Source: a virus (lineage: Duplodnaviria; Caudoviricetes). Taken from it: DNA of 64,000 nucleotides. The DNA is taken from positions 53,976 to 117,975 of IMG/VR virus record IMGVR_UViG_3300029976_000159, one strand, 5' to 3'. The position numbers and the translations under genes were made by a program. Positions 31,967-64,000 of this stretch are shown here, piece after piece. The number at the start of each line of letters is the position of its first letter. The first letter of the stretch is position 1. Under the pieces are notes generated by a model that did not search any database, was not told where the DNA came from, and worked only from the letters and a program-made list of their open reading frames with translations.

Positions 31967-33571
31967 TTAAATTACTTCTCCGTGCCACGAATTAATATGT
32001 CCAATTCGCTTATAATAAAGCCCCGACTTTACCGAATTATAAATTCCTAATGCTCTTTGAGTATTTGGCGGTAAATCAAAAGTTGCAAAATGATTATATT
32101 TTCCTGTTGTACCAAAATTACCACAATCTGCTACAACAGCATCTACGGTTCGATTGTGGTATTTTAACCTAACTAAATCCCCATAGTGCCAAACGGAATT
32201 TAGTTGCCCCTTGGGAATAGCTACATGACAACCGGGAATATTTAAATAATGAATACTGTTCCAACCAGTTACATTACCTTTATCATCAGCTGAAGTATTA
32301 CCATATACTGTACAACCGGTATTAATATATCCAGTATCATCGTCATCTTCGGGAGAGGAAAAACCTCCCAAGCCTGAGCCACTTCCTCCAGAGGCTGAAC
32401 CCACATCCCCGTTGTATCGCCAACCACCATCATAAATATAAAAGTTTAAACTGGAACTGGGTCCGCCCTTGTTTAAACCGAGTTCTCCGCCTCCAGAATA
32501 CGCAGCATTACCATTCTCATCTACAATCTGTACGTGGTGGGCTATACAGACTTGAATATCACCAGGCAACCATGGTCCATCGCCATCAAACCAAGTGAAG
32601 CCTAGGTTAGGTGGGTCTGACCAGTCTGAACCCATGCTAAATGAGGAGTACGTTCCCCCACAAGCAGTGTTCGCTCCTTTTCCACAAGCTATGCTATACA
32701 AGGTTATTGCTGCGCTAACGCATCCAGAGCAATCTAATCTAGCATAGACTTCTCCTCCGCCAGCACGCATTGTAGTGTAGAGTTGAGAGCCTGGATGTTC
32801 ATAATATATCCAGCCATTGGGTGAAGGGGCATCAGCTTTAAGATTTCTCCACATTTCATCAACTATCTCTAGCCATTTTCCACCTTCATAAATATTACAA
32901 ATATCACACTGATATGGATGATACATTAGTTTTCTTGCTTTTTCATAAAGCCCGTTTTCATTATATAAATCAGCTTTGATCAAGCTTTTGTCTGTCTGAT
33001 CCGATTGCCCCGAAATAACTAATACGGTCTTTTGACCGGGCCACCCTGCAACGGGACCGGCTTCCGTAGCATTATTACTTATTGTATTTCCATTCTCGTC
33101 TTTTAATGCTTCTCCGTTAGGGTCTCTGCTTATTGGGTCATAGAACTTTATTAATGGTTCTAGTAAGTTATTATAGTGTTTTGCGTAAATAACATCGTTA
33201 CTCGCAGCCCTAGCTTCTTCCAGTGAAGTAGAAGTAGTTGGTGAGGTTGGGGTATTATCTATTGTAATTTTCCCACCAGAGTTTTGATCCCAATCAGAAA
33301 AGATATTGTTGTCTTGCGGGTTATATTTTCCTTGTGAATAAGTGTTTTTAATAAACTCAATTAAGTCATTTTGTGATTTAGCCGATAAAGTTGAGGTAGT
33401 TTGTATAGTAGACTCTTTAGAAACTTGTGATTGAGTATAGGACTTAATATTTTTCCAATTTAACCAATCACCCTTTTCCTCGGTATTGCCATCCGGACCG
33501 TGAATAGCGAGCTAATGACCTTGCATGCAGAAACTTTGGCAGCCCGCGCACTTATTATTTTCTTCAGCCAT
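31967..33571 (-). CDS. Multidomain cell-wall hydrolase-like protein: Cys-motif N-terminus, NlpC/P60-like domain, double-psi beta-barrel (534 aa, TAG at codon 20)
   Basis: Frame open for 196 codons upstream of 32983 with one TAG (33512); CAGCQSFC, CDIC, LDCSGCVS...HHVQI, VVADCG...FDL. Confidence 0.7.
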
Positions 33572-34295
33572 TGTTCTCTCCTCCCACTATATATTGATTA
33601 TGCAAATTATCATAAACACTACCATCAGCCATTGTAGTATATAATTTGTGCGCCTCTCCGCATTCGTCTATATAAGTATTCTCATCCATTATTACCCTAA
33701 TATCATTCTCTCTCTTTTCTTCCTCTTGGGTCAAACCGCTACTAGCAATATAGTTTTCAATGTTAGCACTGTAAGTTGGAGTACTACCTTGACAACCGTT
33801 TTTCCAAAAGGTAATTAACTTTTCAAGGGTAGTTAAATTATTATATTTTTCTTCTCCATCAGTTGGCTGATTAGAAATGAAATATTTTAAAACCGGCAAA
33901 TCATCAATGGAGATATTATTAATGTAATTTGTAAACTCAGACGAAAAATCAGTAGAAGCTTGAAATTGGGTAATGTAATTATCTATTTCAGCATTTAAGT
34001 CTTCTATCAGCACTGTCCATTCTTTAGTTTTGCAATATAAATACAAAAAGACTGGTAAAAAAGAGCATTTATTATTATCCATGATATAATTTATACTATT
34101 AGTTAATGTTTCTAATGTGTATTGTAAATCAGGAATAATTGTATTTTGAAAAAGTAAGTAATTACTTACATAAATACGATAATTTAAAAAATTGCTAACT
34201 CTATTTGTATAAATATTTTTAACATCTATTAATTCTAAATTACTGAAATTCCAGTCGGGATCAGCATACTCCGTCCCCTAGATAATATAGCTCAA
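33564..34295 (-). CDS. Hypothetical protein in the radical SAM operon (TAG at codon 6)
   Basis: AAAGGA RBS, TTG at 34295, TAG at 34278, then in frame with ORF 33564-34082. Confidence 0.6.
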
Positions 34296-35971: not shown

Positions 35972-36907
35972 TTATCCCAACAGATGTAATCTATCTAAAA
36001 CCACAGATAACTGCGCTCGAGTGACTGGATCGTCTGGTTTAAATGTTCCGTCTGAAAATCCGGTCATAACTTCTTTTTCGGCTGCCTTTTGAATAGAAGG
36101 TTCAGCCCAATGTCCTTGTGTGTCTGTAAACTGAATCATTTTTAAAATAACCTCCATTATTTCATCAACTATGCACCATGCTTCTGTTATTGGATAAGCA
36201 AATGGAATATAACAAAAGCCGTTATTTCCATATTGTTTTCCCCAGGAATTAAGAACTATCCAATAATCATCGTCTGTCCAACCAACTATTGTCATCATGT
36301 GACCGCCATAATTAGTTAAGTCTTTTACTGGATAAATTATGTATCCTTTAGCGTCAGGAGTATATAAAGTACTAAAGATAGGAAAAGATGCTGTAACACC
36401 GCCAAGAGTGTAGATACCTCTTTTAATTTCTTCCGCTCCAGAAGCAAAGTAATAGGAGGAAACACGATAAGGATGTGCTTCTTCATCGTATTTACTTTTA
36501 TTCGTTTCGTACTTAGCGCGAGCGGTCGTAACATCATAGTAACCGGGAAACGTGTCATAATAGCACGTGCCATTCTCTTTGAGTTGCGCAAGAGCTTGAC
36601 GAGGTATCATACCTTCGCCCGAATAATCAGAGCTTTTTCTGTTACCGTAAAGATAACTCGGTGAAAAGATTCGTCTATTTTCACTTTGCTCGTATTCTGT
36701 TAGCCAGCGCAAATAAGAAAGTGAACACGCTACGCATTCCTAACTTGTCCCCTAGTCAAAAATTGGAATATCTTTGACTAGGGGGTTAATATAGCTAGAT
36801 GGAAGAGGCTACTAAGCTGCTCCCGCAATCAAATTTTTAAGTTTGTAATCTCTTTCATCTTTTGGTGATATTAAAGCTCCTGACTTATATTTATTAAAAT
36901 TAATCAT
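35972..36907 (-). CDS. Papain-like C1A cysteine peptidase with C-terminal SLH domain (311 aa, 4 in-frame TAG)
   Basis: PKDERDY...IFD*GTS*ECVA (DQG..C), GGHMM.IVGW, LNSWG, SLH motif F.PDDPVTRAQ. Confidence 0.88.
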
Positions 36908-37572: not shown

Positions 37573-40398
37573 TTAACTAGTTAAATTGCTTTCGGGTGTC
37601 ACAAATTCAATCCAACCGCATATATAAGTCGCTCCCGCGTTTTGCACATAGTCAGCCGTAATTTGCGAAGTGTCCACGTCGCACCCGGTGTTAGAAACCG
37701 GTGTAAGATTTATATCGTCTATCACACATGGAGTGTCTCCCGATATAATCGTTGCCCCCCACTTCAGATAAAGACAATATTCCGAGGTATTAGAGATTGT
37801 TTTGCAATAATTGCATAAATCAATCTCGTCACTGCTCGCTAGTGAATTTTTGTCATCATCTGTAAGCGTATATTTAAATGCCACCCTCCAAATCGGTGTG
37901 CCGTCCGTCCATGAACCGATTTTTTGCGGTGTTGTGGAATATGTTTTCAAGCTGTCGGTCAACTGAGGAAGACCTATCGAGCCGGCGTGAACGGTTCTTG
38001 CAACGTTGGCAGTGTTACTATAGTCGGCAGTGTTACTGCTCATTGCAATACTGTTTGCCAAAACAAAGGTGTCGTTTGTGTAAATTAGATGAAAACACCC
38101 GTAAGAAATACTGTTGTAGCTTTCAAACCCGTCCACACCGTCAAATGTAACCGTTCTGGCACCGAGATCGTTAATATTAAGAGTTATAGCTGTTTCTGCT
38201 TTTAAGTGATTCCCGTAATCGAAATAAATATAGAAGTCCATTCCTTCTTTTAAAGCCGTAACTCCGTCAATCGTAACCTCTTTTGCGTCGTTCTCCGTAG
38301 AGGATGTACAAATCCCGTAAAAACTTGTTTTATTGCCGTTTATCGCCGCTGTTATAACCTTATTTTGTACTGGATTTTCTGAGTTCTCTGACAACACCGT
38401 GTCAATTCCTGTCTTGGTTACACAGTTCGCTTTTGTTTTTATTGTAGTCGTAGTGTCTGTATTATAACCTACCTCTACATAATCTACAAAAGTATAAACC
38501 CCCGTAGGTGTAGAATGATTGCCATAGGAACCATCCGTAGAACTGCTCCATTGAATATCGTAATCCTCTGGATACATCCCATTAAAATAAAGCCATATAC
38601 GAGCGCCAAAATCGCTTTCTACTTCGTATGTATCTGTAGTAACTGTAAATTCTTCACCTGTTGCCCACGTTCCTTTTATTATATATTTAGAAAAACCATA
38701 AGTTGATTCATCACCTGCCGCATTTGTGCTTGTGTTAGTACAAGTCACTGCGAGAGTGCAACTGTTGTTTGCTATTTGCAATTTTAACTTGCTTATTTCT
38801 TGAGATATAGCTTTATTTCGCACGGGATTTTCAGACGTGCTATCTAATGTATTGTCTATTTTTATTATCTTAGCTCCACTCGACCAATCAGAAAAACTGG
38901 AGGCATCACTCGCTTTCTTTCGTTGATACGTGAAACCGTTTGAATCTATTTTTGTTTGAATAACTGTATAATTTGATGCGTCTGCATCCTGTTCTTTTTG
39001 AACAAATACAGGAATATAGCCCTAATCTTGCTAGAGCATATAAAAACCGCATTCTTTCTACTTTAATTCACTATCAGTGATATAAATACTATCTTTTATT
39101 TCACCAATAACCTCTATTTGCCCGTCTATGGTTTCGGTCGGTTGCGTAATCATTTTACATAAATAATTATATCCATAAATTAATTTGCTGTTTAAAACAT
39201 AACCCGTAGTAACATCTGTCGCTATAGTATTTTTAATTAAATATTCATCTATGTCACTAAGATCGTTTTTTAAAATAAAATATGTATCATTAGCACTCGG
39301 AATATAGTTGTTTGTATTATTAAGCTTACTTAGACTATATTCGGCAATCTTTATATTATCTGAGCCTATTGGATAATCAATCCCATCAACGCAAGCATAT
39401 AAATCTAAGCCACCCGTATTATTTTTAATACCGTAAAATATATTATCAAAACTATCAGGGGTGTCTATTATACTTATATTATCTATATAAGCTATTACAC
39501 CACCAGCCCAAGTGTATATTTCGATTCCAGTTAAATCAGCAGGATTAACATCATCTAAAAAAGCAACTGTATCCTTCTACAAAACTTCAGTTCGATTGAA
39601 ATAATCATAAATTGCATAAGTAACTTGTTTAGTTTTGAAATTACATTCTGTTTCAATATGTTTCCAACCTTCACTTTCTACCTATGTAGCATTTTGCTAA
39701 ACAGCTAAATAGCCACTACTATCAATACAACCAATAGTAAATACAATTCCTGTTGTATCATAAGTAGTGCCCGTTGATTCACCTGGTCTTTTGTTTAAAT
39801 TTGCAATACTGAATTGAGTCCTAGAACCAAAATAAATATCAAAATTTGTTTTTAATATTTGAGTATCGCTAGCTAAATTTAAACAAGAAGAATAAGCTTG
39901 TCTATAAGTATTCGAGTTACCGCTTTGGTTAATTTTTTGACAATAACTATCTATAATATTGTTATATTCTACCGTGCAAGACGTTCTATATCCAGTAACA
40001 AAAAGTGATTGTTGGTCGGTAAAATCATAAACTGCACTAGGAAGTTTATCTACAATTTTTAAAGATAATACATTATTCTAATTTAATATCTCCCAGCTAG
40101 ACCAAGAGCTAGAAGAATAAGTTCTTATATAGGCGGCATTTGAATTTGTGGCATAACAAATCTAAACTACTTCATTTTCTATTGTTCCCACGATTAAACA
40201 ACCCTCTGTTATTTTCCCCGGATAATTAGTACAATCACTATAACCGTACATTCCAATGGTTTTAACATTATCAAGGTCTTTTCCAGAAAGTATTGCAGTA
40301 GTTACCAATGAACCGTCTGACAGGATTTGATTAACTATTGTATCAATTGTCGTTTGAGATAATGTAATTGTCTGCGGCGGGTTTACTATAACTGCCAA
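37573..40398 (-). CDS. Tail fibre/receptor-binding-like protein (941 aa, 8 in-frame TAG)
   Basis: Manual translation joins ORFs 40162-40398 and 37573-38823 with no TAA/TGA; WSSW knob motif and repeated S-ENPV-NK motifs. Confidence 0.8.
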
Positions 40399-42967: not shown

Positions 42968-44010
42968 TCCGTTGCCTCCGTCCATAAATTTTTATAAAAC
43001 CTGTCCATATGCCTTACAACCTTCCAACTGTTGCCCTTTGCGGCATGATTTTTCCATGCCCTGTACATTTCATCCGCTTTATCCTTCGTCATTTCATCGC
43101 ATTTAACCTTTCTCACGATGCGCCGAAGCTTTCGTTTTTCATCTTGAACCTTTTTCTTGTCGATAAGCATAAGAACCTTGCCTGTGTCCGTAACTCTAAA
43201 TTTAAAGCCGAGAAACTTTATGCTCTGTTTTATCGGGTATATCCTCGTTTTTCTCTCGTGTAATTTAAATCCTCTCTCGCTCAGCCATTGTTCAATTATA
43301 TTACGGCAATACTTCAAGTAATCTTTATCCTCATGAAATAATACAAAATCATCCATGTATCTGACATAGTATTTAATATGTAATTTCTCTTTTATAATAT
43401 GGTCAAGCTTATCGGGGACGGAAATCCCCACAATCTGTACCATCTGGCTTCCCGGATTAAATCCCGTGTCTCCGGCATATTGTCCGTCCAAAACCTCCGC
43501 CGCGCGTTCATACACGCACGGTCTTAACTTTTCCCGAAACGTATCTTTTGCCGTATCATGCGGCATATTAGGATAATAACCTTTTATATCAAATTGTGCT
43601 ACGTAAAATTTTAATCCATGCTTAAAATACATCTTGCGCAAAAATTCCTTAAGCCTGTTTCGCGCGAGGTCTGTGCCTTTCCCTTTTTGGCAAGCCATAT
43701 TATCATAAATAAACGATTTGCACATAGTTGGATAGATTTCGTTATCATTTAAACTCCTCTGATATACCCTATCCCTGAATGCAATGCTCAAACATTCTCG
43801 CTTTTTCGGATGCGTAATCGTAAATTTGTGCGGCTCTCTTGCCTTATATGTGCCGTCCTTAAGCTGCTTTTCAAGTTTTAATGTTTCCTCAACGGCATTT
43901 AAATGATAATGTGCCGCTGATTGTTTCCATAAAACCCCGCATTTGCATTTATCTTCGGATTCATACAAAGCTTCAAATCCTATAATATTTTCTGTATCAT
44001 TATTATTCAA
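42964..44010 (-). CDS. DGR reverse transcriptase
   Basis: KGKGTD, FDIKGYY, GSQMVQ, YVRYMDDF, FLGF. Confidence 0.95.
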   Translation of the reverse strand: MNNNDTENIIGFEALYESEDKCKCGVLWKQSAAHYHLNAVEETLKLEKQLKDGTYKAREPHKFTITHPKKRECLSIAFRDRVYQRSLNDNEIYPTMCKSFIYDNMACQKGKGTDLARNRLKEFLRKMYFKHGLKFYVAQFDIKGYYPNMPHDTAKDTFREKLRPCVYERAAEVLDGQYAGDTGFNPGSQMVQIVGISVPDKLDHIIKEKLHIKYYVRYMDDFVLFHEDKDYLKYCRNIIEQWLSERGFKLHERKTRIYPIKQSIKFLGFKFRVTDTGKVLMLIDKKKVQDEKRKLRRIVRKVKCDEMTKDKADEMYRAWKNHAAKGNSWKVVRHMDRFYKNLWTEATE

Positions 44011-44189
44011 TAGTTATCTCCTTATGTAAAGTATCTCAGGCGCGTATAGCGAAATACCGTCATTGCGCACGGTTTCCGCGTCACCATCGTATATTTAGCC
44101 GTTATTGCCAACGGTCAGGGTCGCAGACTCCTTGCTTATATTTTCTGGTGCGCCGCCTCTATAAGACGGTTTCATGCCCCGTTAAATTT

Positions 44190-44314
44190 GCAATCCGGGC
44201 GTGCGCGCCACGCATTCGTCGCGTTGTTGTTGTTGATGTTGCCGGTGGCGTTGATGTTCCACGTATTGTACGCGTTGCCGCGATTAGCGGAGCGCAAGCG
44301 CACATTGCACGATG
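44190..44314 (-). repeat. DGR template repeat (TR)
   Basis: 125-nt AAC-rich copy of VR, between avd and RT. Confidence 0.95.
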
Positions 44315-44338
44315 TTAGTCTGTAACCCAAATATTATG

Positions 44339-44752
44339 TTATGTTATTTTACTGTATCTCTTTCGGTCAGCCTCATGCCACGCTTTTAAGGCATCCCGAG
44401 TTTTTATAATTTTTTCACCCCAGAATTTCAGTCGTTTGGTTTTGAAATGAAAAACCTTTTGCGCAAGCTGAATCTGCGGAAGCATTCTGTTGCATTTCCT
44501 TATTGCCCTTCTTTGAAGCTCACGGCGCGTTATCCAGTCGCCCGCTGTCGTGACGTATACGTTGTTCGCCTCGAACGCGTCATAGAATACACTTTGCGCC
44601 GCTTCGATAATGGGTGCAGTCACGCAGTCAAAATATTCATCCTTGAATACTTTTTTATTGCGCGTGATTTTTAATGTGTATACTGCTAATTCCTGAGCCG
44701 TAAGCAAAAAGTGCAATTTCGGCTTTGCCCGCTCTCCTTCTGGTACCGCCAT
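44339..44752 (-). CDS. avd: DGR accessory variability determinant (four-helix bundle)
   Basis: Basic, helical, 137 aa, EAN...R...Q and W...D motifs; lies between VR and TR. Confidence 0.8.
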   Translation of the reverse strand: MAVPEGERAKPKLHFLLTAQELAVYTLKITRNKKVFKDEYFDCVTAPIIEAAQSVFYDAFEANNVYVTTAGDWITRRELQRRAIRKCNRMLPQIQLAQKVFHFKTKRLKFWGEKIIKTRDALKAWHEADRKRYSKIT

Positions 44753-44785
44753 ATAATATATACCTCACTTTCGTTTGTAATTCCC

Positions 44786-44813
44786 ATCCCCCGCATCCGT
44801 GGGTGCGGGGGAT
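44786..44813 (-). promoter_or_regulatory. GC-rich hairpin/cruciform downstream of VR (DGR target recognition)
   Basis: ATCCCCCGCATCC-GT-GGGTGCGGGGGAT, 17 nt past the target stop codon. Confidence 0.75.
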
Positions 44814-44830
44814 TAATAGATGTAAAAGAT

Positions 44831-47185
44831 TCACACAAAGCAAGCCGGGCGTGCGCGCCACGCATACGTCGCGCTGGAGCTGTAGATGCCGCCGGTGGCG
44901 ACGATGCCCCACGTAATGCACGCGTAGCCGCGATAAGCGGAGCGCAAGCGCACATAGCACGATGATGTCTTTGCGTTCAGAGCGTAGCTCTTAAGTTCTG
45001 CGTATGTTTGCCACTGCGCATATTTGCCTGTTCTGCCGTTTGCGGCGGCAAGCTGCTTATAGAAATCCCATGCTTCGCCCTCTATACCCGAAATCTGCGG
45101 GGTTATGTACATCTGTTCGAGCGAGGGCAAAAATACCTTGTCGTACATTACGTCTGTCACACCGCTGTCGGTAACGGTATTTGTCGAATGTTGTACCTTT
45201 ATCGGTTTCATTGCCGCAATGAAATCCTCGGAATATCCTGCCAAAAATCCCGCGTATGTGTTAAGCTGCGATGGCGCTCTGTCCCATTTGTTCTGCTTTG
45301 TCCACCATTCGCCGACTTCTGCGGAGCTGTTGAGCCACTGACGCAACGCGCTGTACTTGTATCTGTTGTAGCCCAAGAACATACGCTGATAATGATTGAC
45401 ATCGCCCGTGCCGTCCGTTGCGCCGAGGTATGTGCCTGTTGCCGTGTCCTCTGTGACCTCGGTTAATGCAACGGTTTCAGTTGCCGTAAATGTGGTAGGG
45501 GACGCGAACACCTGTATATTTGTTCCCGCAAAATCCGAGGTATCCTGATTGCCGACAAGATAAAGCTGTTCACCCTCGGTTAAGTCGTTTTCAAGTGTAA
45601 AGCTGTAATATTTGCCGTTGCACGCGTAAGCCTTCCATGAGCTTGCTGTGCATACAAGCTTGAAATAATACGTACCCGCGCTCATTCCGCCCTCAGGCAC
45701 ATCGTACATTGCCTCACGCGCGTCAAACGGCATATCAAACGGCGTACAATATGCCCATTGTAAGAACATTCCTTTTGTATCCGCCGTAACTACCGCGCCG
45801 TCGGTATCCGTGCCTGTCTGCATGGTTTCGCTGTTTGAAAAATGCACCACATTCATAGGCACGTCCGTGTATGCGGTAGTTCCGGACGAACGCACATCCG
45901 ACCAATCCTCGGCGAGTTGGTCGCCAATGGAGAATGCTTTTGAGGCTTCTCCCGCGTCTGTAAGTTTTGAAATTGCTGCCCAAGAATTAAGCACACCGAT
46001 TGATGCTGCCAAAGCATTTACGCTAGTTGTTAAATCATTAATCTTTGCAGTTATTACTTGATTTTCTACTGGATTAGATGATTCATCCAAAAGCTCGGAA
46101 TCTACGATAGTTTTATTTGCGCCTTCCTCTATGCCATCAAGCTTTATCTTTTCCGCTGTGGTGTAACTTGCTGTCGTAGCGTCAAGGACGCTCTTGTTGC
46201 TGTGCGTGTGCGCCGATGCCGCAACCTCGTTTATCGCTCCCACAAGGGTTGCTGTTTCCGTTGTCGTAAGACTTGACATTGTTCCAATATCATGCGCTGC
46301 TTCACCCGCGTATGTTACGGCATTGTTCCATGAATTAACATCATCCATGGTAATACCTTTCGATTCGTCTCCGTAGATTACTGTGAACTCTGTCGCTTCA
46401 ATACTTCCGGGGAAAGACATTCCGGTTGCTGTCCCGCCGATTGCGTCCAGAACCGTCTTGTTGTCGTGCGTGTGCGCCTTATCGTATGCGATTTTGCCGT
46501 AATCGCCCCTGAATGCTGTTGAGGATGTTTCACCTAAAGCAAGCGATTCCGAAATTTCTACAAGTGTAGAACCCGACCATCTATATGTTTTGTTGGTATC
46601 AAGGTCAACATATATCTTTCCTGTTTCACCATCTATTTCTGTTGTATGTGCGCTGTCACTATATATTTTATCATTTGAAATATATCCTTCTACAACATCA
46701 TCCACGTAAGATGGTAATTGTGACGAGGGGACTTTGCCAGCAGCATCAAGTTCTGCTATACCGTTAGCTGTACCTTTATCACTGGCGGGAACAGCTTCAA
46801 CGTCTAAATAAGTCAATGTTATATCTTGGTCAAGAGTATAATCGTTTATTTTGCGACTTTTTTCAACAAGCGTTTCTAAGTCCATAGCTTGCTTAGTTGC
46901 AAGCGTTTCAATTTCAGATGCGTTATCATTAACTTGTTCCTGCAAATTACTTATATTATTGTCAACTGCTTCTGTAACTCCAACCCATTTGGAATTTTGT
47001 AATACGTATAATAACTGTGTGTCTTTAGCATAAACTATCATACCCTCATACGCACCATTTTCATCTATAAGCGCAGTTAAATCATCAGTTGTATCAACTA
47101 CTGCTCTTACATCCAACGGGGTTTTAGCCTAAAGTTTAAATCCAGAAGCAACGTTAATTCCTGTCATATTGTCAAATATTGCCAT
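44831..47185 (-). CDS. DGR target: tail fibre/receptor-binding protein with C-terminal CLec-like variable domain (784 aa, TAG at codon 19)
   Basis: MAIFDNMTGINVASGFKL*AKTPLDVR; GKVPSSQLPSYVDDV and HTH.NK fibre motifs; SALRQWLN, DKVFLPS, LRSA...RPA C-terminus containing VR. Confidence 0.88.
44840..44964 (-). repeat. DGR variable repeat (VR)
   Basis: Aligns to TR without gaps; 18 mismatches, all at TR adenines. Confidence 0.95.
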
Positions 47186-47206
47186 AATTTTCACCATCCT
47201 TCCATA

Positions 47207-48034
47207 TCAATGAGCGAATTTCATGTTAAACGCCGTAACGGTTGTCGCGTCCGAAACGTACACATAGTAATTCTGCGCCGTGCCGTCAAGTCCGGTAATT
47301 GAAACGGTAGACTGTGTAAACGTATCTGTGACATTGAATCCGTTCGGGTCTGTAATGGTCTTGATAACTCCGTTCGAAGCGGGTGTCGCAAATACCATCT
47401 TTTGGTTTGAAGCCGTGTAAGAGATGGTCTTTGTTCCCTTCGATTCAATCTTCTTGGTCAAAGCTTTAACCGCCGCCGCGTCTGCCGTGGCGTCCGCCGC
47501 AATGACACCGTAATAATACGGATAAACAAACGTAAATGTTCCGGTGTTCGCGCTTGTCACCTTGCCGTCCGAATCTGTAACCTTTGCCGTGAAGTTTTGG
47601 TTTGCCGAAACGGAGGTGGAAACGGTAAAAGTAAACGTTGCCGAGCCGTTTGAGTTAAGCGTTGACAAATCCGTGCCGGACTTAGATCCCAAAGAGGTAG
47701 AGCCGCTGAAAATCTCCACCTTTGTAATGGACGCGCTTTTCTTTGTGACGGAAACGGAAATCGAAGTAACCGTTTGAGCGTTGCCCTTTTCGTAAGTGCC
47801 GCCGTTTGCGGGTGAAACAACCTTTGCCGTCACCACAGGCGCAACCCACGGATACAGAATTTTTGTCAGCATTTCCGTAACGGGAACATCGGTAAAGGTA
47901 GCCCCTGCCGCAATACCGCCGTGCGCGCTGACAACGGGTGTCGAGTTTGTGTACTACGTAGCATTCTCTATTTCTGTTTTTATTTTTTCTATCGCTCGTT
48001 TTAAATTTCCAAGAGTCAAAAGTTTATATGCCAA
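47207..48034 (-). CDS. Ig-like-domain virion protein (275 aa, TAG at codon 27)
   Basis: TTG at 48034 with RBS, TAG at 47954, in frame with ORF 47207-47872; Thr/Ser-rich beta-strand pattern. Confidence 0.7.
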
Positions 48035-48915: not shown

Positions 48916-48927
48916 GAAATCTCGCAA

Positions 48928-48999
48928 CGGGGGACCAGAGGTTCGAACTCTGACGATGAGGGTTAGAGCCTCATGTGCTACCAATTACACCAATCCCCT
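48928..48999 (-). tRNA. Amber suppressor tRNA (anticodon CUA), Gln-like
   Basis: AGGGGATTGGTGTAATTGGTAGCACA-TGAGG-CT-CTA-AC-CCTCA-TCGTCAGAGTTCGAACCTCTGGTCCCCCG; G2-C71, G3-C70, G73, unpaired 1-72. Confidence 0.93.
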
Positions 49000-49131
49000 G
49001 CAGGAACAAGGCGCGATGGCTCTGACACTAAACGGTTTGTAGCGTACCGGTTGGTACCCGTTAAAAGACTTCTGTTAAATCTTCTTGCATATAACTTAAA
49101 AATATTTTGCTGATTTCGCGCCTTTATAAAA

Positions 49132-56480: not shown

Positions 56481-56669
56481 TTACATATTTAAATAAGCGA
56501 TTTTTATATAGCTGAGCAAAACATATGTAAATACAAATGCTAAGCAAGCCATACCTATTCCAAATGAAATTTTTCCCGCACGCATTCGATTCTTATAAGC
56601 AAATATTACTCCAAAAGCGAGAAGAGCAACACAAATTACAGACAGTATATCTATTATTATACTCATCAT
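56481..56669 (-). CDS. Small two-TM protein family member
   Basis: Start reassigned to MMSII behind an RBS; FGVIFAYKNR motif. Confidence 0.6.
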   Translation of the reverse strand: MMSIIIDILSVICVALLAFGVIFAYKNRMRAGKISFGIGMACLAFVFTYVLLSYIKIAYLNM

Positions 56670-56719
56670 ATTATGTTCACCTCTTTTTATATTAGTTGCA
56701 TTTAAGTTATAATTTTTTA

Positions 56720-56905
56720 TTAAATATTTGCAAGCATAATTTTTATTAAGAAGCAAGCGAAAAATGTGCATATAAATATTACACCAGTCACACCTATTCC
56801 CACCAAAATTACTCCTGCTTGCTCCCGCTCTCGAAAAGCAAATACAATTCCAAGAACAACAAGAGCAATGCAAATTACAAACAGTATAAATATTATATTA
56901 ATCAT
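56720..56905 (-). CDS. Small two-TM protein family member
   Basis: LGIVFAFREREQ motif. Confidence 0.6.
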   Translation of the reverse strand: MINIIFILFVICIALVVLGIVFAFREREQAGVILVGIGVTGVIFICTFFACFLIKIMLANI

Positions 56906-58854: not shown

Positions 58855-58904
58855 CACCCTTTCTTTATATATATAATAATATATTTTTTAAAAAAAATCA
58901 AAAA
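58845..58904 (-). repeat. Promoter-RBS-start cassette repeat, copy 3 (60 bp)
   Basis: Identical to 58595-58654. Confidence 0.85.
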
Positions 58905-58938
58905 TCCTCTTGATAATTAAACCAAGAGGATAATGAAT

Positions 58939-59676
58939 TTATTCAAAATAGTTAAAACTCGGCATAGGTTCTAATTTAAATTTGTTCTTTTCGTGCGCCG
59001 TCTGGAAGGTTTTCACTTTAGACGGGTTAGTCGGCACTACACCTTCACGCAACCAAGAGTCAAGTTCAAGGTAAGTAAAGCCGAGGTTGTCTTCATCGGT
59101 TTTCCCGCACAAGCCGTCTGAGGGAGCTTTATCTACTAAATGTGCGGGAAGCCCCAGACATCTTCCTATAGCTTTTACCTCTTGGACGGTAAAATGCGCG
59201 AGTGGGGAAAAATCCCCAACAGCGTCGCCGTACCTAGTTGAATAGCCTATGTAATCTTCGGAATAATTACAAGTATTGGCTACTCGCCCATTATTAGATT
59301 GCGAAACCGCGTAGAGCGCTGCCATGCGCAAACGCGCGGGAAGGTTTATATAAGTCTGCCGTGACGGATCATCAATTTGTTTCATAATGCTAGTTACAGC
59401 TGTATTTATATTAACAGTTACCAATGAAATGTGTAGAAATTCCGCAATATCTTTAACATCATTTATATCATTCTGGTATCCATTCGGCAACGAAACTCCA
59501 ATTACCCTATCTTTACCAAGGGCTTTGACGCAAAGTGCGGCAACTACAGAGCTATCTTTTCCGCCAGAGATACCTATAATTGCGTTGCAGCCTTCTCCAT
59601 TCTCCTTGAACCATTCTCTTATCCAAGTCACGCATTTCTCAGTGGCAGTTTCTGCGTTAAAATTATATTGTTTCAT
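58939..59676 (-). CDS. nadE: NH3-dependent NAD+ synthetase
   Basis: GISGGKDS, N..ARLRM, GYSTRYGD, KAPSDGL, TDED.LG. Confidence 0.93.
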   Translation of the reverse strand: MKQYNFNAETATEKCVTWIREWFKENGEGCNAIIGISGGKDSSVVAALCVKALGKDRVIGVSLPNGYQNDINDVKDIAEFLHISLVTVNINTAVTSIMKQIDDPSRQTYINLPARLRMAALYAVSQSNNGRVANTCNYSEDYIGYSTRYGDAVGDFSPLAHFTVQEVKAIGRCLGLPAHLVDKAPSDGLCGKTDEDNLGFTYLELDSWLREGVVPTNPSKVKTFQTAHEKNKFKLEPMPSFNYFE

Positions 59677-61123
59677 TTAACCTCTCTCTTATAGTTTCAA
59701 AACTTTCTTCTTTGACCAATTCTCCATCTACAAAGACAGTTTCCAAAAGAGTGTCAGACATATCACAAAGGTGGGTGTATCCGTCTTGTGCACATAATTT
59801 TCCGTTTTCGTTTTTGTACACGCGCACGCATCCCTTGTGCGACTTTTTCAGGTGCGAAGTATCAGTTTTCGGGTCTTTGTAAAGCGCGTAGGGGTGTCTG
59901 TTAATTATTGCGTAAGTAGCCTTCATCGCAATTCCGTAGGTATCACGAGTATAAACGACCATACCGTTCTCGTCCAGATGAGCGGCGAAGCTAAACGCGC
60001 CAATCCCAAAGAAGATGTTGTTAGCCGCAAAACCATCTTGTTCCAGCTGTTTATAGATTTCTTTTACTCGTCCGAGGGTACAACCATCTCCGTAAATAAC
60101 TTTTATGTGTGAGTCGAGGAGCTTATAACCTTTAGAGTTAGTTGTTCCACCGAATGTGTCCCACAAAGATTTAATTGTTTTTATTGAAATATCTATTATG
60201 TCACCGCTGTCCGGTCGGATGAGCAGCGTACCATTATGCGCAAGAATTTCTTCTTTACAAGCCGGCAATATGTTATTAATCATATTCCAATAGTCGTAAG
60301 TATCAGAAACCATTGAGAATGAAGTATTAGGGTAAAGTTCGGTAAGTGCGCGTTTAACGAAGGAGATTTCATCTCCGTCTATGGCAAAATTAGCGCTCAT
60401 TACGCTATGTTCGGTTGAAACTGCGCCAATGCCCACTTTATCGGGGAGGCTAACATAGTTATCCTCTATCCAACAGAGAGAAGGAATTGTGGATGTTTTG
60501 TTAAAAGACAGGAGCCAAGATGCGCTTGCTTTGCAAGCCTCCTCGAGGCAAGACATACCTCTCATTCCAAAATCTGACATAGCCATTGCGGGTTTAGCAT
60601 CATCGACCGTTTTTTCATAGTATTCGTTCGCTATAGCTCTATATTCTGATGCCATAGTCGCGTGTGCGCACGGTTTCCAAAGCTCCATCTGAAGGATACA
60701 CTCTATCCACTGAACAACCCAAGCAAATTGGGTGTTGAGCGCGAATATTTCTATACAAGGAACGCCCATGGGTACTTTTGTTCCTTCGGGGATTGCGCGG
60801 ATAAGAATGGGCAAATGTCCGAGGTCATAAAGCGCCATTACGCGATCTTTTTCAACATTATTGATGTCTATGTGATGGCTCATAACGCGCACATACTCTT
60901 TTTCTACCTGTTCTCTTGGAAGCCTAAAGAAATTTTCGTTAAACATTTTTACAAGATATTTCTTAATGAATGCCTGTAGACCGAAGAATACCATTTCATC
61001 GGTAGCTAACATAGATCTACGAGGAACCCAATAGGAAACAAGTTGGGTAGTACCTTCGGGGTACATTCTTGGATGACATTGCTTATAAGTATCAGAACAC
61101 AGCATAGCAAGAATATTATTCAT
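59663..61123 (-). CDS. NAMPT/NadV-fold phosphoribosyl- (or ADP-ribosyl-) transferase
   Basis: DTYKQCH, DFGMRG, STEHSVM, VSDTYD, IRPDSGD, IYGDG, TRDT, KDPKTD..KKS.KG. Confidence 0.9.
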   Translation of the reverse strand: MNNILAMLCSDTYKQCHPRMYPEGTTQLVSYWVPRRSMLATDEMVFFGLQAFIKKYLVKMFNENFFRLPREQVEKEYVRVMSHHIDINNVEKDRVMALYDLGHLPILIRAIPEGTKVPMGVPCIEIFALNTQFAWVVQWIECILQMELWKPCAHATMASEYRAIANEYYEKTVDDAKPAMAMSDFGMRGMSCLEEACKASASWLLSFNKTSTIPSLCWIEDNYVSLPDKVGIGAVSTEHSVMSANFAIDGDEISFVKRALTELYPNTSFSMVSDTYDYWNMINNILPACKEEILAHNGTLLIRPDSGDIIDISIKTIKSLWDTFGGTTNSKGYKLLDSHIKVIYGDGCTLGRVKEIYKQLEQDGFAANNIFFGIGAFSFAAHLDENGMVVYTRDTYGIAMKATYAIINRHPYALYKDPKTDTSHLKKSHKGCVRVYKNENGKLCAQDGYTHLCDMSDTLLETVFVDGELVKEESFETIRERLNETI

Positions 61124-61127
61124 ATTT

Positions 61128-61922
61128 TTAATCCTTTCTATTATCTACTCTAAATGTTTGAACAAATGTTACGTAATCTTCTCTATTGGCGGTGAAGATG
61201 GAGTCGGTAGTGTAGATGTGTGCGATGGGTTTTTCCTGCCAAAGTTTTCCTTTAGTTACAGCATTTTCAAGATGATCTACATAAAGATAAATATTGCGAG
61301 CGCCAAGCTTTTTAAGTTTTTCGGCAGCGTAATAAAAAGTTCCACCATAGCTACATATATCATCTATAATGAGAATATCTCGGTTAGCAATCGATTCCTT
61401 GCCCTCTATTACCTCGTACGAGGTTATCCGCCCGTCGCGCCAGTTTCTCTTTTTCATGCCTGTCGCGTAAGGTTGACCAAAAAGATCGGAATAGCGTTTT
61501 CTTGCTCCTTCATCAGGGAAGAAAAGTAATGCGTCTTTGTGCTCGCGCACTATTTCGGTTGCATAGGTTGGAAAGACTTCTACTCTATCTAAGAGCGCAG
61601 TTGAAACATTAGAGTGTGGGTTCAGCACACATACTTTGTCGAAATGAAGAGAATTTATTATTTTCGCGAAGTATTTAAGAGTAAATACTTCGTCTAGATT
61701 TTGCGTGCGGTCAAACCTTGCATTCGGTATATACGGCATAGTAAGCGTTATTCTGGTCGTAGGTGACTTTTCGCGCATATGTTGCACTATTGAATAGAGA
61801 AGGAAGATTTCTGAATCTTGGTCATAGCACCATGTTATATCGCCTATGCTGTCAATTTTTACGTTATGGGTATTATCTGGAAATTGTTCTTGCTTGATTA
61901 TGACACCGTTTACCTTAATCAT
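61128..61922 (-). CDS. PRPP-synthetase-like pyrophosphokinase (Prs/Adps-like)
   Basis: FPD, MPYIPNARFDR, NPHS, FPDEGA, IIDDICSYGGTF. Confidence 0.88.
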   Translation of the reverse strand: MIKVNGVIIKQEQFPDNTHNVKIDSIGDITWCYDQDSEIFLLYSIVQHMREKSPTTRITLTMPYIPNARFDRTQNLDEVFTLKYFAKIINSLHFDKVCVLNPHSNVSTALLDRVEVFPTYATEIVREHKDALLFFPDEGARKRYSDLFGQPYATGMKKRNWRDGRITSYEVIEGKESIANRDILIIDDICSYGGTFYYAAEKLKKLGARNIYLYVDHLENAVTKGKLWQEKPIAHIYTTDSIFTANREDYVTFVQTFRVDNRKD

Positions 61923-62452
61923 ACTATTTCTTTACTCCTTGTAATAAATATTTGATTGTTGCGGAGTAGAATCCGCGACGCTTCTTGCGCTTGTGGCGAT
62001 GTTGCCGAGGAAGCATCTTCTATAAAATAAATGGGGATATTAGGAAAACTTGCTCGCAATATAAGTGCATTACTTATTACGCATATATCGGTACAAAGCC
62101 CCGCAATGTAGATAGCCTCCGTCCATGGGTTAATTTCCCCACTCCATTCTGTATATCCAAAAGTATGTTTGATGATGGGAAAACTGTGTCCCGCAAGGGC
62201 GCTCCAGATTGAGGGTTCAAGTTCGTAACCCTTTGTTCCTTTTATGCAGTGTTCTACCGGAAGGATTTTACCCTCAAGAGTTGAAAGGTAGTCATCTTTG
62301 TGTTGATCAAGCGTGTAGAATATCATGTCGCCGTTTTCATAGAACTTTTTAATGGTTTCGCGCATTACTGGAACTATAGCTTGCGCGTTCTCTGAACCTA
62401 GAGCGCCGGTTATAAAATCGTTTTGCATATCAACTACTATTAAAGTTTTCAT
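61919..62452 (-). CDS. pncA: Nicotinamidase (isochorismatase family)
   Basis: VVDMQNDF, D.H, HC..GT.G, K.TFG, GLCTDICV. Confidence 0.88.
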   Translation of the reverse strand: MKTLIVVDMQNDFITGALGSENAQAIVPVMRETIKKFYENGDMIFYTLDQHKDDYLSTLEGKILPVEHCIKGTKGYELEPSIWSALAGHSFPIIKHTFGYTEWSGEINPWTEAIYIAGLCTDICVISNALILRASFPNIPIYFIEDASSATSPQAQEASRILLRNNQIFITRSKEIV

Positions 62453-62490: not shown

Positions 62491-62519
62491 ATTATAATAT
62501 TTTTTTATAAAAAAATCAA
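62491..62519 (-). promoter_or_regulatory. Promoter of the NAD operon
   Basis: TTGATT-17-TATAAT. Confidence 0.7.
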
Positions 62520-62588
62520 AAATTTTCGGACATTTTAGGAAAAAAATATTATTTTGGAATTTAAGATTTTTGAAAGGATGTGAGAATA

Positions 62589-62732
62589 ATGAAAAATGAT
62601 GTTAGTATTACTTTTACTTGCGCCAAGAGTGAAAAAGAAAAGTTGTAGGAAATTGCGCAAAAGGAGAGTAGAAATATGAATTAGATTATGCGCTTGTTAC
62701 TTAGAAAGTATTTGCAGAAATATAGCGTCTAA
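62589..62732 (+). CDS. Ribbon-helix-helix DNA-binding protein (47 aa, 2 in-frame TAG)
   Basis: MKNDVSITFTCAKSEKEKL*EIAQKESRNMN*IMRLLLRKYL: RHH pattern. Confidence 0.65.
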
Positions 62733-62742
62733 AATTTTAACA
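62723..62742. repeat. 20-bp inverted repeat, left copy
   Basis: TAGCGTCTAAAATTTTAACA; exact reverse complement at 63355-63374. Confidence 0.85.
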
Positions 62743-62772
62743 GGTTTTTTTAACACTTCTATATAAAAGGTG

Positions 62773-63360
62773 GTGAAAATAATAAAAAATTCAAGACAAA
62801 TACCCAAGAGCAAAGAGATTTGCGCTGATAAGAAATATTCTGATGTGTTGTATGCGTACTTGTAGTAGATTTCAAGTTTTTAGCCAGCGGAAGGAGTTCG
62901 TTATGTAAAAAAGAAATAGGTTAATTTTAGTTAGCTTGGGCGCAAATTTGGGTTATCAAGATAGACAACTTCTACAAGATTTAAAAATTTAATTAATATG
63001 GGTTTTATTGTAGAAAATAAGGAAAAAGGTTGGTATGAATTAACGCTTTTGGAAAAAGATATAGCTATGTTGATTCCTTACGAAACCTTAACCTTGTTAG
63101 TGGATACACTTAGCGCAAATACTATTAGTACTTATGTTTATTTATTTAAAAGGTATTATGCAAATTGTTAGAAAAGTTTTTTATTTACTCTTAGTTAGAT
63201 TAAAATGTTTTTAGGACTTTGCGCAACTACTAGAAGTAATGATGAAATTATTACTAATATTTTATTTGTATTAAAAAAAATTGGTTTAATTGATGTTGAG
63301 CTGAAAATAATTGATAATAAAACTATGTATGAATTAAAAGAAGTTAGGGTGAAGTGTTAA
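62773..63360 (+). CDS. Tandem winged-helix protein, replication-initiator-like (195 aa, 8 in-frame TAG)
   Basis: Absent from the standard-code ORF track; S*LGRKFGLSR*TTSTRFKNLINMGFI HTH and a second wHTH LKKIGLI. Confidence 0.75.
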
Positions 63361-63374
63361 AATTTTAGACGCTA
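63355..63374. repeat. 20-bp inverted repeat, right copy
   Basis: TGTTAAAATTTTAGACGCTA. Confidence 0.85.
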
Positions 63375-63442
63375 CCTGTTAAAAAAATAGTAACCATATA
63401 AATAGTATTTAAATAGGGGCTTTGCTGAAGAACTTTAAAAAC

Positions 63443-63572
63443 GTTTTTATTCACAGTACGTTTCGCAAAAGCTAACGCTTTTGCTCACTATGTGAATAAA
63501 AACTTAAGGCGCTTTTAATTTGGACTTTTAACGCCCAAAGCTAGCGCTTTAGGCTAAGTCCAAATTAAAAGC
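63443..63572. other. Two adjacent long hairpins with a shared apical motif
   Basis: 63443-63503 and 63511-63572, both capped by AAAGC-TA(A/G)C-GCTTT. Confidence 0.7.
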
Positions 63573-63587
63573 TTTGCGGGAAGGAGA

Positions 63588-63881
63588 GTGATGAAAATGA
63601 AATTGAGATTGGGGCGCATGACTACTGAAGAAATGGCGAATTGGTTTGGTGTTACTGTTACAACTTATTATTCAAGAAGGAAAAAGCGCATGGAAGAGTT
63701 AAAAGAATATTGCGATTTTGAAGAATATATAGGCGGTCTTATTATAAAAGAGATTTATAAAGATACTTACGAGAAAAAAGTAGTTAAGAAAGAAGAAAAA
63801 AAGAAGAAGGAAAAGAAAAAGAAGAAAAAGAAGAAGAAAGTACATCCCTTAGATAGAAGTTCTTGGTTAAATTATATATAA
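63588..63881 (+). CDS. Small HTH-like protein with Lys-rich tail
   Basis: MTTEEMANWFGV; AAGGAG RBS. Confidence 0.55.
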   Translation: MMKMKLRLGRMTTEEMANWFGVTVTTYYSRRKKRMEELKEYCDFEEYIGGLIIKEIYKDTYEKKVVKKEEKKKKEKKKKKKKKKVHPLDRSSWLNYI

Positions 63882-64000
63882 AATAAATAAAATGATATAT
63901 AAAATAAATAAAATGATATATAAAATAAATAAAATGATATATAAAATAAATAAAATGATATATAAAATAAATAAAATGATATATAAAATAAATAAAATGA
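63874..64000. repeat. Tandem repeat, 21-bp unit, at least 6 perfect copies (runs off window)
   Basis: (ATATATAAAATAAATAAAATG)n. Confidence 0.92.

Follow-up and report, generated by a model that had tools for sequence, protein, structure and literature searches.

A phage operon for PncA-, Adps-, Namat- and NadE-like proteins as a candidate nicotinate-based variant of NARP1

Depletion of nicotinamide adenine dinucleotide (NAD+) is among the commonest outcomes of anti-phage defence, as in Thoeris, DSR, SIR2-HerA, short Argonautes and Kongming. Three phage routes for rebuilding NAD+ have been described so far. Of these, NARP1 combines the enzymes Adps and Namat and is known from phages SPbetaL1, Bas63 and ICP1 and from Paenibacillus foliorum (bioRxiv 10.1101/2024.02.11.579819; PMC12774641; PMC13586617); the Adps of SPbetaL1 is a tested enzyme that makes ADP-ribose pyrophosphate (ADPR-PP). 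Here we describe a NARP1-like operon at positions 58939-62452, on the minus strand, of a 64,000-nucleotide stretch of viral DNA (Duplodnaviria; Caudoviricetes), which we refer to as the window and which is the final 64 kb of the 117,975-base linear IMG/VR record IMGVR_UViG_3300029976_000159 (~70% complete). The operon encodes, in order, a PncA-like nicotinamidase, an Adps-like kinase, a Namat-like transferase and the NAD synthetase NadE. We hold with modest confidence, from sequence and model comparisons, that it is a nicotinate-type (deamidated) variant of NARP1, which would lead from nicotinamide to nicotinate, from ADP-ribose (ADPR) to ADPR-PP, and from these through nicotinic acid adenine dinucleotide (NaAD) to NAD+.

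In the proposed route, PncA would convert the nicotinamide freed by NAD+-cleaving defence enzymes to nicotinate, while the Adps-like kinase would make ADPR-PP from ADPR and ATP. The Namat-like transferase, whose amide-binding corner is remodelled (Ser211, Ser236), would then combine nicotinate with ADPR-PP to give NaAD directly, and NadE would use ATP and ammonia to amidate NaAD to NAD+. The substrates, the products and the use of the operon in counter-defence are all predictions. We narrowly favour the specific claims that the transferase (P0001) is a nicotinate ADPR-transferase and that the module is a self-contained four-enzyme route, bypassing nicotinic acid mononucleotide (NaMN) and the adenylyltransferase NadD, that is widespread in gut Clostridia and their phages. 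As a speculation, the detour might be advantageous through the trapping of charged nicotinate in the cell or through an extra ATP-driven pull by NadE. An earlier note on this DNA, made from the sequence alone, had proposed the same path from nicotinamide through nicotinate and NaAD to NAD+, and the Adps-like kinase, the nesting of the transferase among Namats, the changes in its pocket and the linkage to PncA and NadE lend this path support. The note had also suggested that NAD+-cleaving enzymes may spare NaAD, for which the analysis gave no support.

The transferase, P0001 (59663..61123, minus strand; 486 amino acids), contains NAPRTase and NAMPT_N domains and matches phrog_448 at 1e-155. Its best solved relative is Namat (9W5X/9W5W, 1.9e-112), with HdNadV at 5e-92 and human NAMPT at ~1e-55, and it is ~41% identical to the Namat of SPbetaL1. 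The AlphaFold (AF2) model of P0001 has a mean predicted local distance difference test (pLDDT) score of 92.6 and a template modelling (TM) score of 0.92 to Namat 9W5X. NCBIfam names the protein nicotinate phosphoribosyltransferase (NF006629, above cut-off); it falls outside the PncB subfamily, whose models NF009131, NF006696 and TIGR01513 give 24-32 bits against cut-offs of 297-503. For comparison we used 69 IMG/VR loci found with the transferase, 52 loci found with SPbetaL1 Namat and two GenBank phage loci, in addition to the 150 nearest 50%-identity cluster representatives out of 1.8 billion proteins. The Adps-like gene lies directly upstream of the transferase gene, separated by a 4-base gap in this phage, and the same pairing is seen in 117 of 123 loci. 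As a separate observation, many transferase homologues (P0006, P0007, P0026, P0062 and others) have lengths of 570-1100 amino acids, with their similarity split over two to four stretches. In P0086, sub-threshold HNH and AP2 matches fall within an N-terminal extension preceding the transferase part. These features suggest that inteins or homing-endonuclease insertions are frequent in the family.

The FNKTST motif of P0001, at 60488-60505, aligns with FTGTDT of the solved Namat. Ser211 (codon 60491..60493, minus strand) therefore occupies the position of Namat Asp215 and human NAMPT Asp219, and the alignment bears out the earlier note, which had read Ser in place of the nicotinamide-selecting Asp from the codon at 60491. 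Every one of the 68 IMG/VR relatives with a blastp match spanning the motif likewise has Ser at this position, and among the 50%-identity representatives it is Asp in 99, Ala in 29, Ser in 18, Val in one and Glu in one. A second substitution, Ser236 (codon 60416..60418, minus strand), falls by alignment at Namat Ala242, also a nicotinamide contact; this residue is Ala in 99% of 137 Asp-type sequences and Ser in 67 of the 70 non-Asp sequences. In total, seven columns switch cleanly between the 137 Asp-type and 70 non-Asp sequences, and two of the seven are the nicotinamide contacts Asp215 and Ala242. Seven such contacts are listed for Namat (PMC12774641), and the other five, together with the catalytic His, are invariant in the non-Asp alignment, as is the catalytic core of F185, R188, R303, H239, D11 and Y13. 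In Namat this conserved core comprises the catalytic His, Arg306, Phe189, Asp13' and Tyr15'. In Namat, the D215A substitution lowers activity ~8-fold (PMC12774641). For human NAMPT, reviews that refer to Khan et al. 2006 name Asp219 as the determinant of substrate specificity and describe D219S as switching the affinity for substrates and D219A as inactive. Given the clade-wide replacement of two amide contacts, the retention of the other five and the mutant data, the change is concentrated where the pocket recognises the amide, which is the kind of shift that use of nicotinate's carboxylate would require. Given Ser211 for Asp215 and Ser236 for Ala242, we would not class P0001 as a nicotinamide transferase. 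Lys209, within FNKTST, was considered as a partner for the carboxylate and was dropped as a general feature, since its position varies among K, N, S, P, A and L in the non-Asp clade.

The donor side of the transferase was compared through the selectivity clamp of Namat, which has the motif GS-X-phi-X-phi-X-phi-TRD, where X is aromatic at positions 3 and 7, and is accompanied by a loop whose third residue is a stacking Arg, Lys or Tyr. This clamp is reported to matter for the use of ADPR-PP and not for that of phosphoribosyl pyrophosphate (PRPP) (PMC12774641). In P0001, the clamp helix region (59942..60001, minus strand; placed by alignment and model) consists of GAFSF, a 9-residue insertion and TRD. 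Phe377 takes position 3 and Phe379 position 5, while the insertion, modelled as a beta-hairpin with pLDDT ~83-85, precedes TRD and leaves position 7 unalignable. An aromatic residue at position 3 (Phe392 of Namat) is present in 69 of the 70 non-Asp sequences; HdNadV has Gln there, and both human NAMPT and the protein of phage RB16 have Gly. The whole Namat clamp motif is intact in deep non-Asp members, including that of phage phAss-1.

The kinase, P0002 (61128..61922, minus strand; 264 amino acids), is an Adps-like pyrophosphokinase of the PRPP synthetase (PRS) fold, resembling ribose-phosphate diphosphokinases and matching phrog_619 at 1e-64. It is 33% identical to SPbetaL1 Adps (E 9e-43) and matches solved PRPP synthetases at 1.7e-13 or weaker, in a PDB set that held no solved Adps structures. 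Additionally, every NCBIfam PRPP synthetase model scores P0002 under its curated cut-off. Structures of ICP1 Adps have identified named residues and a remodelled donor (PP) loop that includes Cys215 and Phe221 (PMC13586617). Ten ICP1 residues are kept in P0002, namely F18, R87, H121, D161, K185, D212, D213, I214, C215 and F221; the counterparts of K185, D212, D213, C215 and F221 are K157, D187, D188, C190 and F196. The ICP1 residues are conserved in 68-69 of the 69 Adps-like partners of non-Asp transferases. As to the loss of the C-terminal alpha11-alpha12 module, the comparison is one of length only: P0002 has 264 amino acids, compared with 272-293 for Adps and ~315 for bacterial PRPP synthetases. 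Phe80 of P0002 was considered as the equivalent of ICP1 Phe92, a candidate discriminator from PRPP synthetases, and was dropped; Phe92 aligns to Gln74 instead. Judged by these comparisons, P0002 resembles a tested Adps far more than it does any PRPP synthetase.

A transferase tree, rooted on the T4-like NadV protein of phage RB16, placed all 70 non-Asp sequences (Ser, Ala or Val) in one clade with a support of 1.0. This clade is sister (support 0.995) to the Asp clade that holds the tested SPbetaL1 Namat. Deeper branches hold the Namat-like protein of ICP1, a phage with a tested partner Adps, and that of EC6 (a Felixounavirus, presumably of the same genus as Bas63). Because the non-Asp clade is nested among Namats in this way, its ancestor was most likely an ADPR-PP user. 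The non-Asp branch appears to have arisen once, inside the radiation of Adps-paired Namats; repeated independent loss of the Asp was considered and rejected, as the tree shows a single clade. The earlier note had put forward a phylogenetic comparison with Adps and Namat as a check; the tree places the transferase within the Namat radiation, and by sequence similarity the kinase is nearer to tested Adps than to PRPP synthetases.

The loss of the Asp coincides with a change in gene content. Neighbourhoods were read within flanks of up to 8 kb, shorter at contig ends, and on this basis no PncA or NadE homologue was found near an Asp-type transferase (0 of 37 loci). PncA and NadE both stand beside the transferase in 70 of 84 non-Asp phage loci, the remainder being mostly at contig ends. 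The 70 comprise 58 of 72 Ser-type loci and 12 of 12 Ala-type phage loci, including complete phAss-1. NadE is also present in all five deep-branching non-Asp members whose contigs reach far enough, and the four-gene set recurs in deep-branching contigs that come from unrelated samples; for a further deep-branching member, P0036, the contig is too short to inform. NadE is scarce in phages, occurring in 52 of 50,697 records, as compared to 2,042 records with a NAMPT-fold gene.

A scan of bacteria, using one genome per prokaryotic species, returned at least 588 transferase relatives. Among the best 80 of these, which are mostly from gut Lachnospiraceae, Oscillospiraceae and other Clostridia, 65 loci carry the full PncA-Adps-transferase-NadE array, and all 80 read FLNTAT, FVNTAT or FLNTAS at the motif. 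The module is thus not specific to phages, as the earlier note had anticipated in allowing for similar clusters in host chromosomes. Its presence in bacterial genome assemblies suggests a housekeeping role in ADP-ribose recycling, from which phages may have borrowed. One deep-branching bacterial copy has a chemotaxis receptor gene as a neighbour, together with a gene that weakly matches the winged-helix domain of NrtR (L125:128-958); NrtR is an ADP-ribose-responsive regulator of NAD genes.

The first gene of the operon encodes P0003 (61919..62452, minus strand; 177 amino acids), a PncA-like nicotinamidase with a Pfam Isochorismatase match of 7e-19. Its best solved relative is the Pyrococcus horikoshii pyrazinamidase/nicotinamidase 1ILW (1e-13). 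Asp8, Asp49, His51 and His68 (in EHCIKGT) match residues of 1ILW, Cys124 aligns within DICV, and Lys95 lines up by our reading of a gapped stretch. We take these positions to be the Asp-Lys-Cys catalytic triad and the Asp/His/His metal site of isochorismatase-fold nicotinamidases. Because P0003 scores 29 bits on the NCBIfam PncA equivalog, far under the cut-off of 174, nicotinamide is given here only as its probable substrate. The last gene encodes P0004 (58939..59676, minus strand; 245 amino acids), a single-domain NH3-type NAD synthetase, NadE, with a Pfam NAD_synthase match of 4e-49, a score of 167 bits on TIGR00552 (cut-off 64) and an SGGxDS motif. Its best solved relative is the archaeal-type P. 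horikoshii NadE 2E18 (1e-34), and the second is Francisella NadE 3FIU (1.8e-31). We presume Tyr27, Gln133 and Arg236 to be the specificity determinants of the Francisella enzyme. By our reading of the alignment, P0004 has Gly27, Gln126 and Thr226 at these positions, so that only the Gln is identical.

The islands of close relatives (for example at L001:7960-11103 and L001:12456-13031) carry further genes, compared with which the operon of this phage is a minimal four-gene form. Of 72 loci, 29 have Tpt1/KptA, 16 have a YAcAr SLOG protein and 15 have NADAR. These additions handle NAD or ADP-ribose, and we count them in favour of a route through ADPR-PP. An adenylosuccinate-synthetase-like gene occurs in 28 close-relative islands. 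In the 117,975-base record of this phage, NADAR, Macro and Tpt1 were looked for and not found. A conserved gene of ~135-150 amino acids lies between the transferase and NadE genes in 16 Ser-type relatives, in phAss-1 and in one deep-branching contig (outside the window, at L013:7412-7867, L071:8576-8995 and L130:2399-2818). The product has no Pfam or PDB match, and a language-model look-up pointed to viral clusters named 'Hydrolase family protein' and, lower, 'HAD-like domain containing protein' (0.94-0.96). The gene might code for a phosphatase accessory to the module.

Among the rival explanations, the one that survives best is PRPP-based Preiss-Handler salvage, which we regard as possible though unlikely. 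Here PncA would act with a PRS-like enzyme that supplies PRPP and a NAMPT-fold enzyme that makes NaMN, to be followed by host NadD or a phage NadM-like protein and then by NadE; the gene set of the operon is indeed that of this pathway minus NadD. As regards ADENYLYLTRANSFERASE, searching the 117,975-base record gave no PF01467 adenylyltransferase, and neither did six records of relatives, each of them complete or 90% complete or more, nor the phAss-1 genome. To this extent the absence of an adenylyltransferase, including NadD, that the earlier note had claimed still stands, but it does not extend to every relative. In one Ser-type sublineage, a gene for a 191-amino-acid adenylyltransferase of the NadM/archaeal type lies directly after NadE (17 of 69 loci, including two complete genomes), and one Ala-type genome has a NadM-like gene located elsewhere. 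NadE, then, is always present in the module and an adenylyltransferase is optional. We infer that the optional enzyme is of an NMN-preferring type (NMN, nicotinamide mononucleotide) and not NadD, and this combination of an obligatory NadE with an optional, NMN-preferring adenylyltransferase favours the direct formation of NaAD.

Several observations nevertheless weigh against the nicotinate-based NARP1 variant and in part toward a PRPP-based pathway. The NadM-like gene next to NadE keeps Preiss-Handler salvage alive, given that archaeal NadM takes NaMN besides NMN (PMC3376133). The absence of NadD from a phage proves little because every host is expected to have it, and the record is only ~70% complete. 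Namat itself also accepts PRPP in vitro (PMC12774641). In the subclade of this phage the clamp is altered: the second stacking aromatic is displaced by the 9-residue insertion, and P0001 and its subclade have Met38 where SPbetaL1 has the stacking Arg40, a residue that is Arg in 50 of the 70 non-Asp sequences. Most of the conserved Adps residues are common to PRPP synthetases too, and ICP1 Phe92 has no conserved counterpart in the SPbetaL1 and EC6 proteins and differs even between tested Adps. Moreover, because the Asp was lost once, the linkage to PncA and NadE represents one retained event and not repeated convergence. The NF006629 match of P0001, above its cut-off, also agrees with a phosphoribosyltransferase. 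What counts against the PRPP-based pathway is that the kinase groups with tested Adps instead of PRPP synthetases, and that the clade of the transferase, which branches from within the NARP1 Namats, has retained the aromatic that stacks on adenine, a residue absent from true Nampts. Additionally, NadE is obligatory while the adenylyltransferase is absent from most complete relatives, the hosts already possess a PRPP synthetase, and the relatives' islands hold ADP-ribose-linked genes.

A detour through amidation at the mononucleotide level, as in Francisella, is very improbable. The transferase would make NaMN, NadE would convert it to NMN, and an NMN adenylyltransferase would complete NAD+. 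The second-best solved relative of P0004 (3FIU, 1.8e-31) is such an NMN synthetase (PMC3376133), and some relatives pair NadE with a NadM-like gene; yet the best solved relative is the archaeal-type 2E18, the tested archaeal NadE takes NaAD and lacks NMN synthetase activity (PMC3376133), no NMN adenylyltransferase was found in this phage or in most complete relatives, and P0004 shares only the Gln of the three presumed Francisella determinants. There is equally little to recommend plain NARP1, in which the transferase would still turn nicotinamide into NAD+ and PncA and NadE would be unrelated add-ons feeding host salvage: Ser or Ala alone does not exclude nicotinamide binding, and several NAD genes are often stacked in one phage island, but PncA would destroy the transferase's own substrate, the two amide contacts change together clade-wide, PncA and NadE accompany the family's transferases in an all-or-none manner, and the alanine mutants are ~8-fold less active in Namat and listed as inactive, in the reviews noted above, in NAMPT.

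The four open reading frames (ORFs) of the operon are co-oriented on the minus strand. In the order PncA-kinase-transferase-NadE, the first two overlap by 4 bases, 4 bases separate the second from the third, and the last two overlap by 14 bases. Under translation table 11 each of the four stays open and is therefore without in-frame TAG, so that the four-gene, TAG-free operon of the earlier note is recovered at 58939-62452. The single promoter that it placed ahead of the operon is represented by a promoter-like site (62491..62519, minus strand; TTGATT, 17 nt, TATAAT) ~40 nt upstream of the first gene, which is a consensus match only (10/12); 26 promoter-like sites were observed in the region versus 17.2 +/- 4.3 in shuffles. 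Directly 3' of the NadE stop codon is a terminator-like hairpin with an 11-bp stem and a T run (58904..58931, minus strand), likewise a consensus match only. The GC skew, negative elsewhere in the window, flips to +0.245 at 62500-64000, where the only ORFs that follow are short ones on the plus strand; the operon therefore begins at a strand-switch region near the contig end. Of the flanking genes, none of the seven downstream of NadE, nor the ORF upstream of PncA, has a credible Pfam match; the only matches of any kind are sub-threshold DUF hits for 56481-56873, with none for the other six downstream genes or the upstream ORF.

Elsewhere, the window contains replication genes for a DNA polymerase, topoisomerase II subunits, a DnaB-like helicase, a RecJ-like nuclease and an RNA ligase. 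A tRNA with the anticodon CTA, labelled tRNA-Pyl by ARAGORN, is located at 48927-49000 (minus strand), and reading TAG as a residue lengthens several genes, with 1-8 in-frame TAGs each (for example 37573-40398, 31967-33685 and 35972-36907). On account of this tRNA and these lengthened genes, the phage resembles TAG-recoded gut phages such as phAss-1, which fits partial TAG recoding. The G+C content of the window is ~33%, rising to 44-49% at 44001-48000, a stretch that covers a 761-amino-acid protein whose matches are to Hoc-like/Ig-type head-decoration and tail-fibre-like proteins. Searching the phage collection for near-identical DNA gave no matches.

If the nicotinate-based reading is correct, it would add a fourth phage route to NAD+, one through nicotinate, and a new enzyme reaction that gives NaAD directly without a mononucleotide. 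It would also explain the loss of the substrate-binding Asp in a large branch of the Namat family. Further, hundreds of genes annotated as PRPP synthetase and nicotinate/nicotinamide phosphoribosyltransferase, in gut Lachnospiraceae and Oscillospiraceae and their phages, would be reassigned. We found no description of a nicotinate-based NARP1 variant in the searchable literature, including the passages returned by term look-ups in the NARP1, RyR and aRES preprints, and the required reaction of nicotinate with ADPR-PP to NaAD was found in no paper in that literature. Likewise, PncA and NadE appear in none of the descriptions of NARP1, NARP2, NARP3 and NARP1-AP.

The identical gene set and order is present in phAss-1 (OQ749652; PMC10607447), where three genes bear gene-level names only (nicotinamidase, ribose-phosphate pyrophosphokinase and nicotinamide phosphoribosyltransferase) and the NadE homologue is unnamed; a term search of the phAss-1 paper found no discussion of an NAD pathway. 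The phAss-1 transferase differs from P0001 in having Ala at the Asp215 site and an unmodified Namat clamp motif. NARP2 (NadV and NatV of Vibrio phage KVP40) and NARP3 (PnuC-like and NadR-like proteins; PMC13464706) resemble the present operon as phage-encoded means of restoring NAD+ after its depletion by defence. However, both need an NMN adenylyltransferase and amidated intermediates and have no PncA, NadE or PRS-fold kinase. NARP1-AP, in which NARP1 is joined by the Macro-domain phosphatase Adpp (bioRxiv 10.64898/2026.01.28.702374), is similar in that a NARP1 operon is extended by accessory enzymes that widen its substrates; Adpp acts on the ADP-ribose side, converting ADPR-1P to ADPR, whereas the additions here are on the pyridine side. 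With the Preiss-Handler pathway (PncA, PncB, NadD, NadE), the operon shares the initial deamidation of nicotinamide, the use of nicotinate as substrate and the final amidation of NaAD by NadE. It differs in having no PncB-family enzyme and no NadD, and in a predicted ADPR-PP donor, with which the mononucleotide and adenylylation steps would be skipped.

The closest resemblance is to NARP1 itself. In both, a PRS-fold kinase gene and a NAMPT-fold transferase gene lie side by side and in the same order, with identities to the SPbetaL1 pair of 33% and ~41%, respectively. The transferase has kept its fold (TM 0.92), its catalytic core and the aromatic at clamp position 3, and the kinase has kept the donor loop and catalytic Lys of Adps. 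Set against these likenesses are the Ser residues in place of Asp215 and Ala242, the 9-residue clamp insertion and the Met in place of the loop Arg40. Here, too, PncA and NadE are obligatory partners, and the predicted product of the transferase is NaAD and not NAD+. The operon is most likely a variant of the known NARP1 counter-defence.

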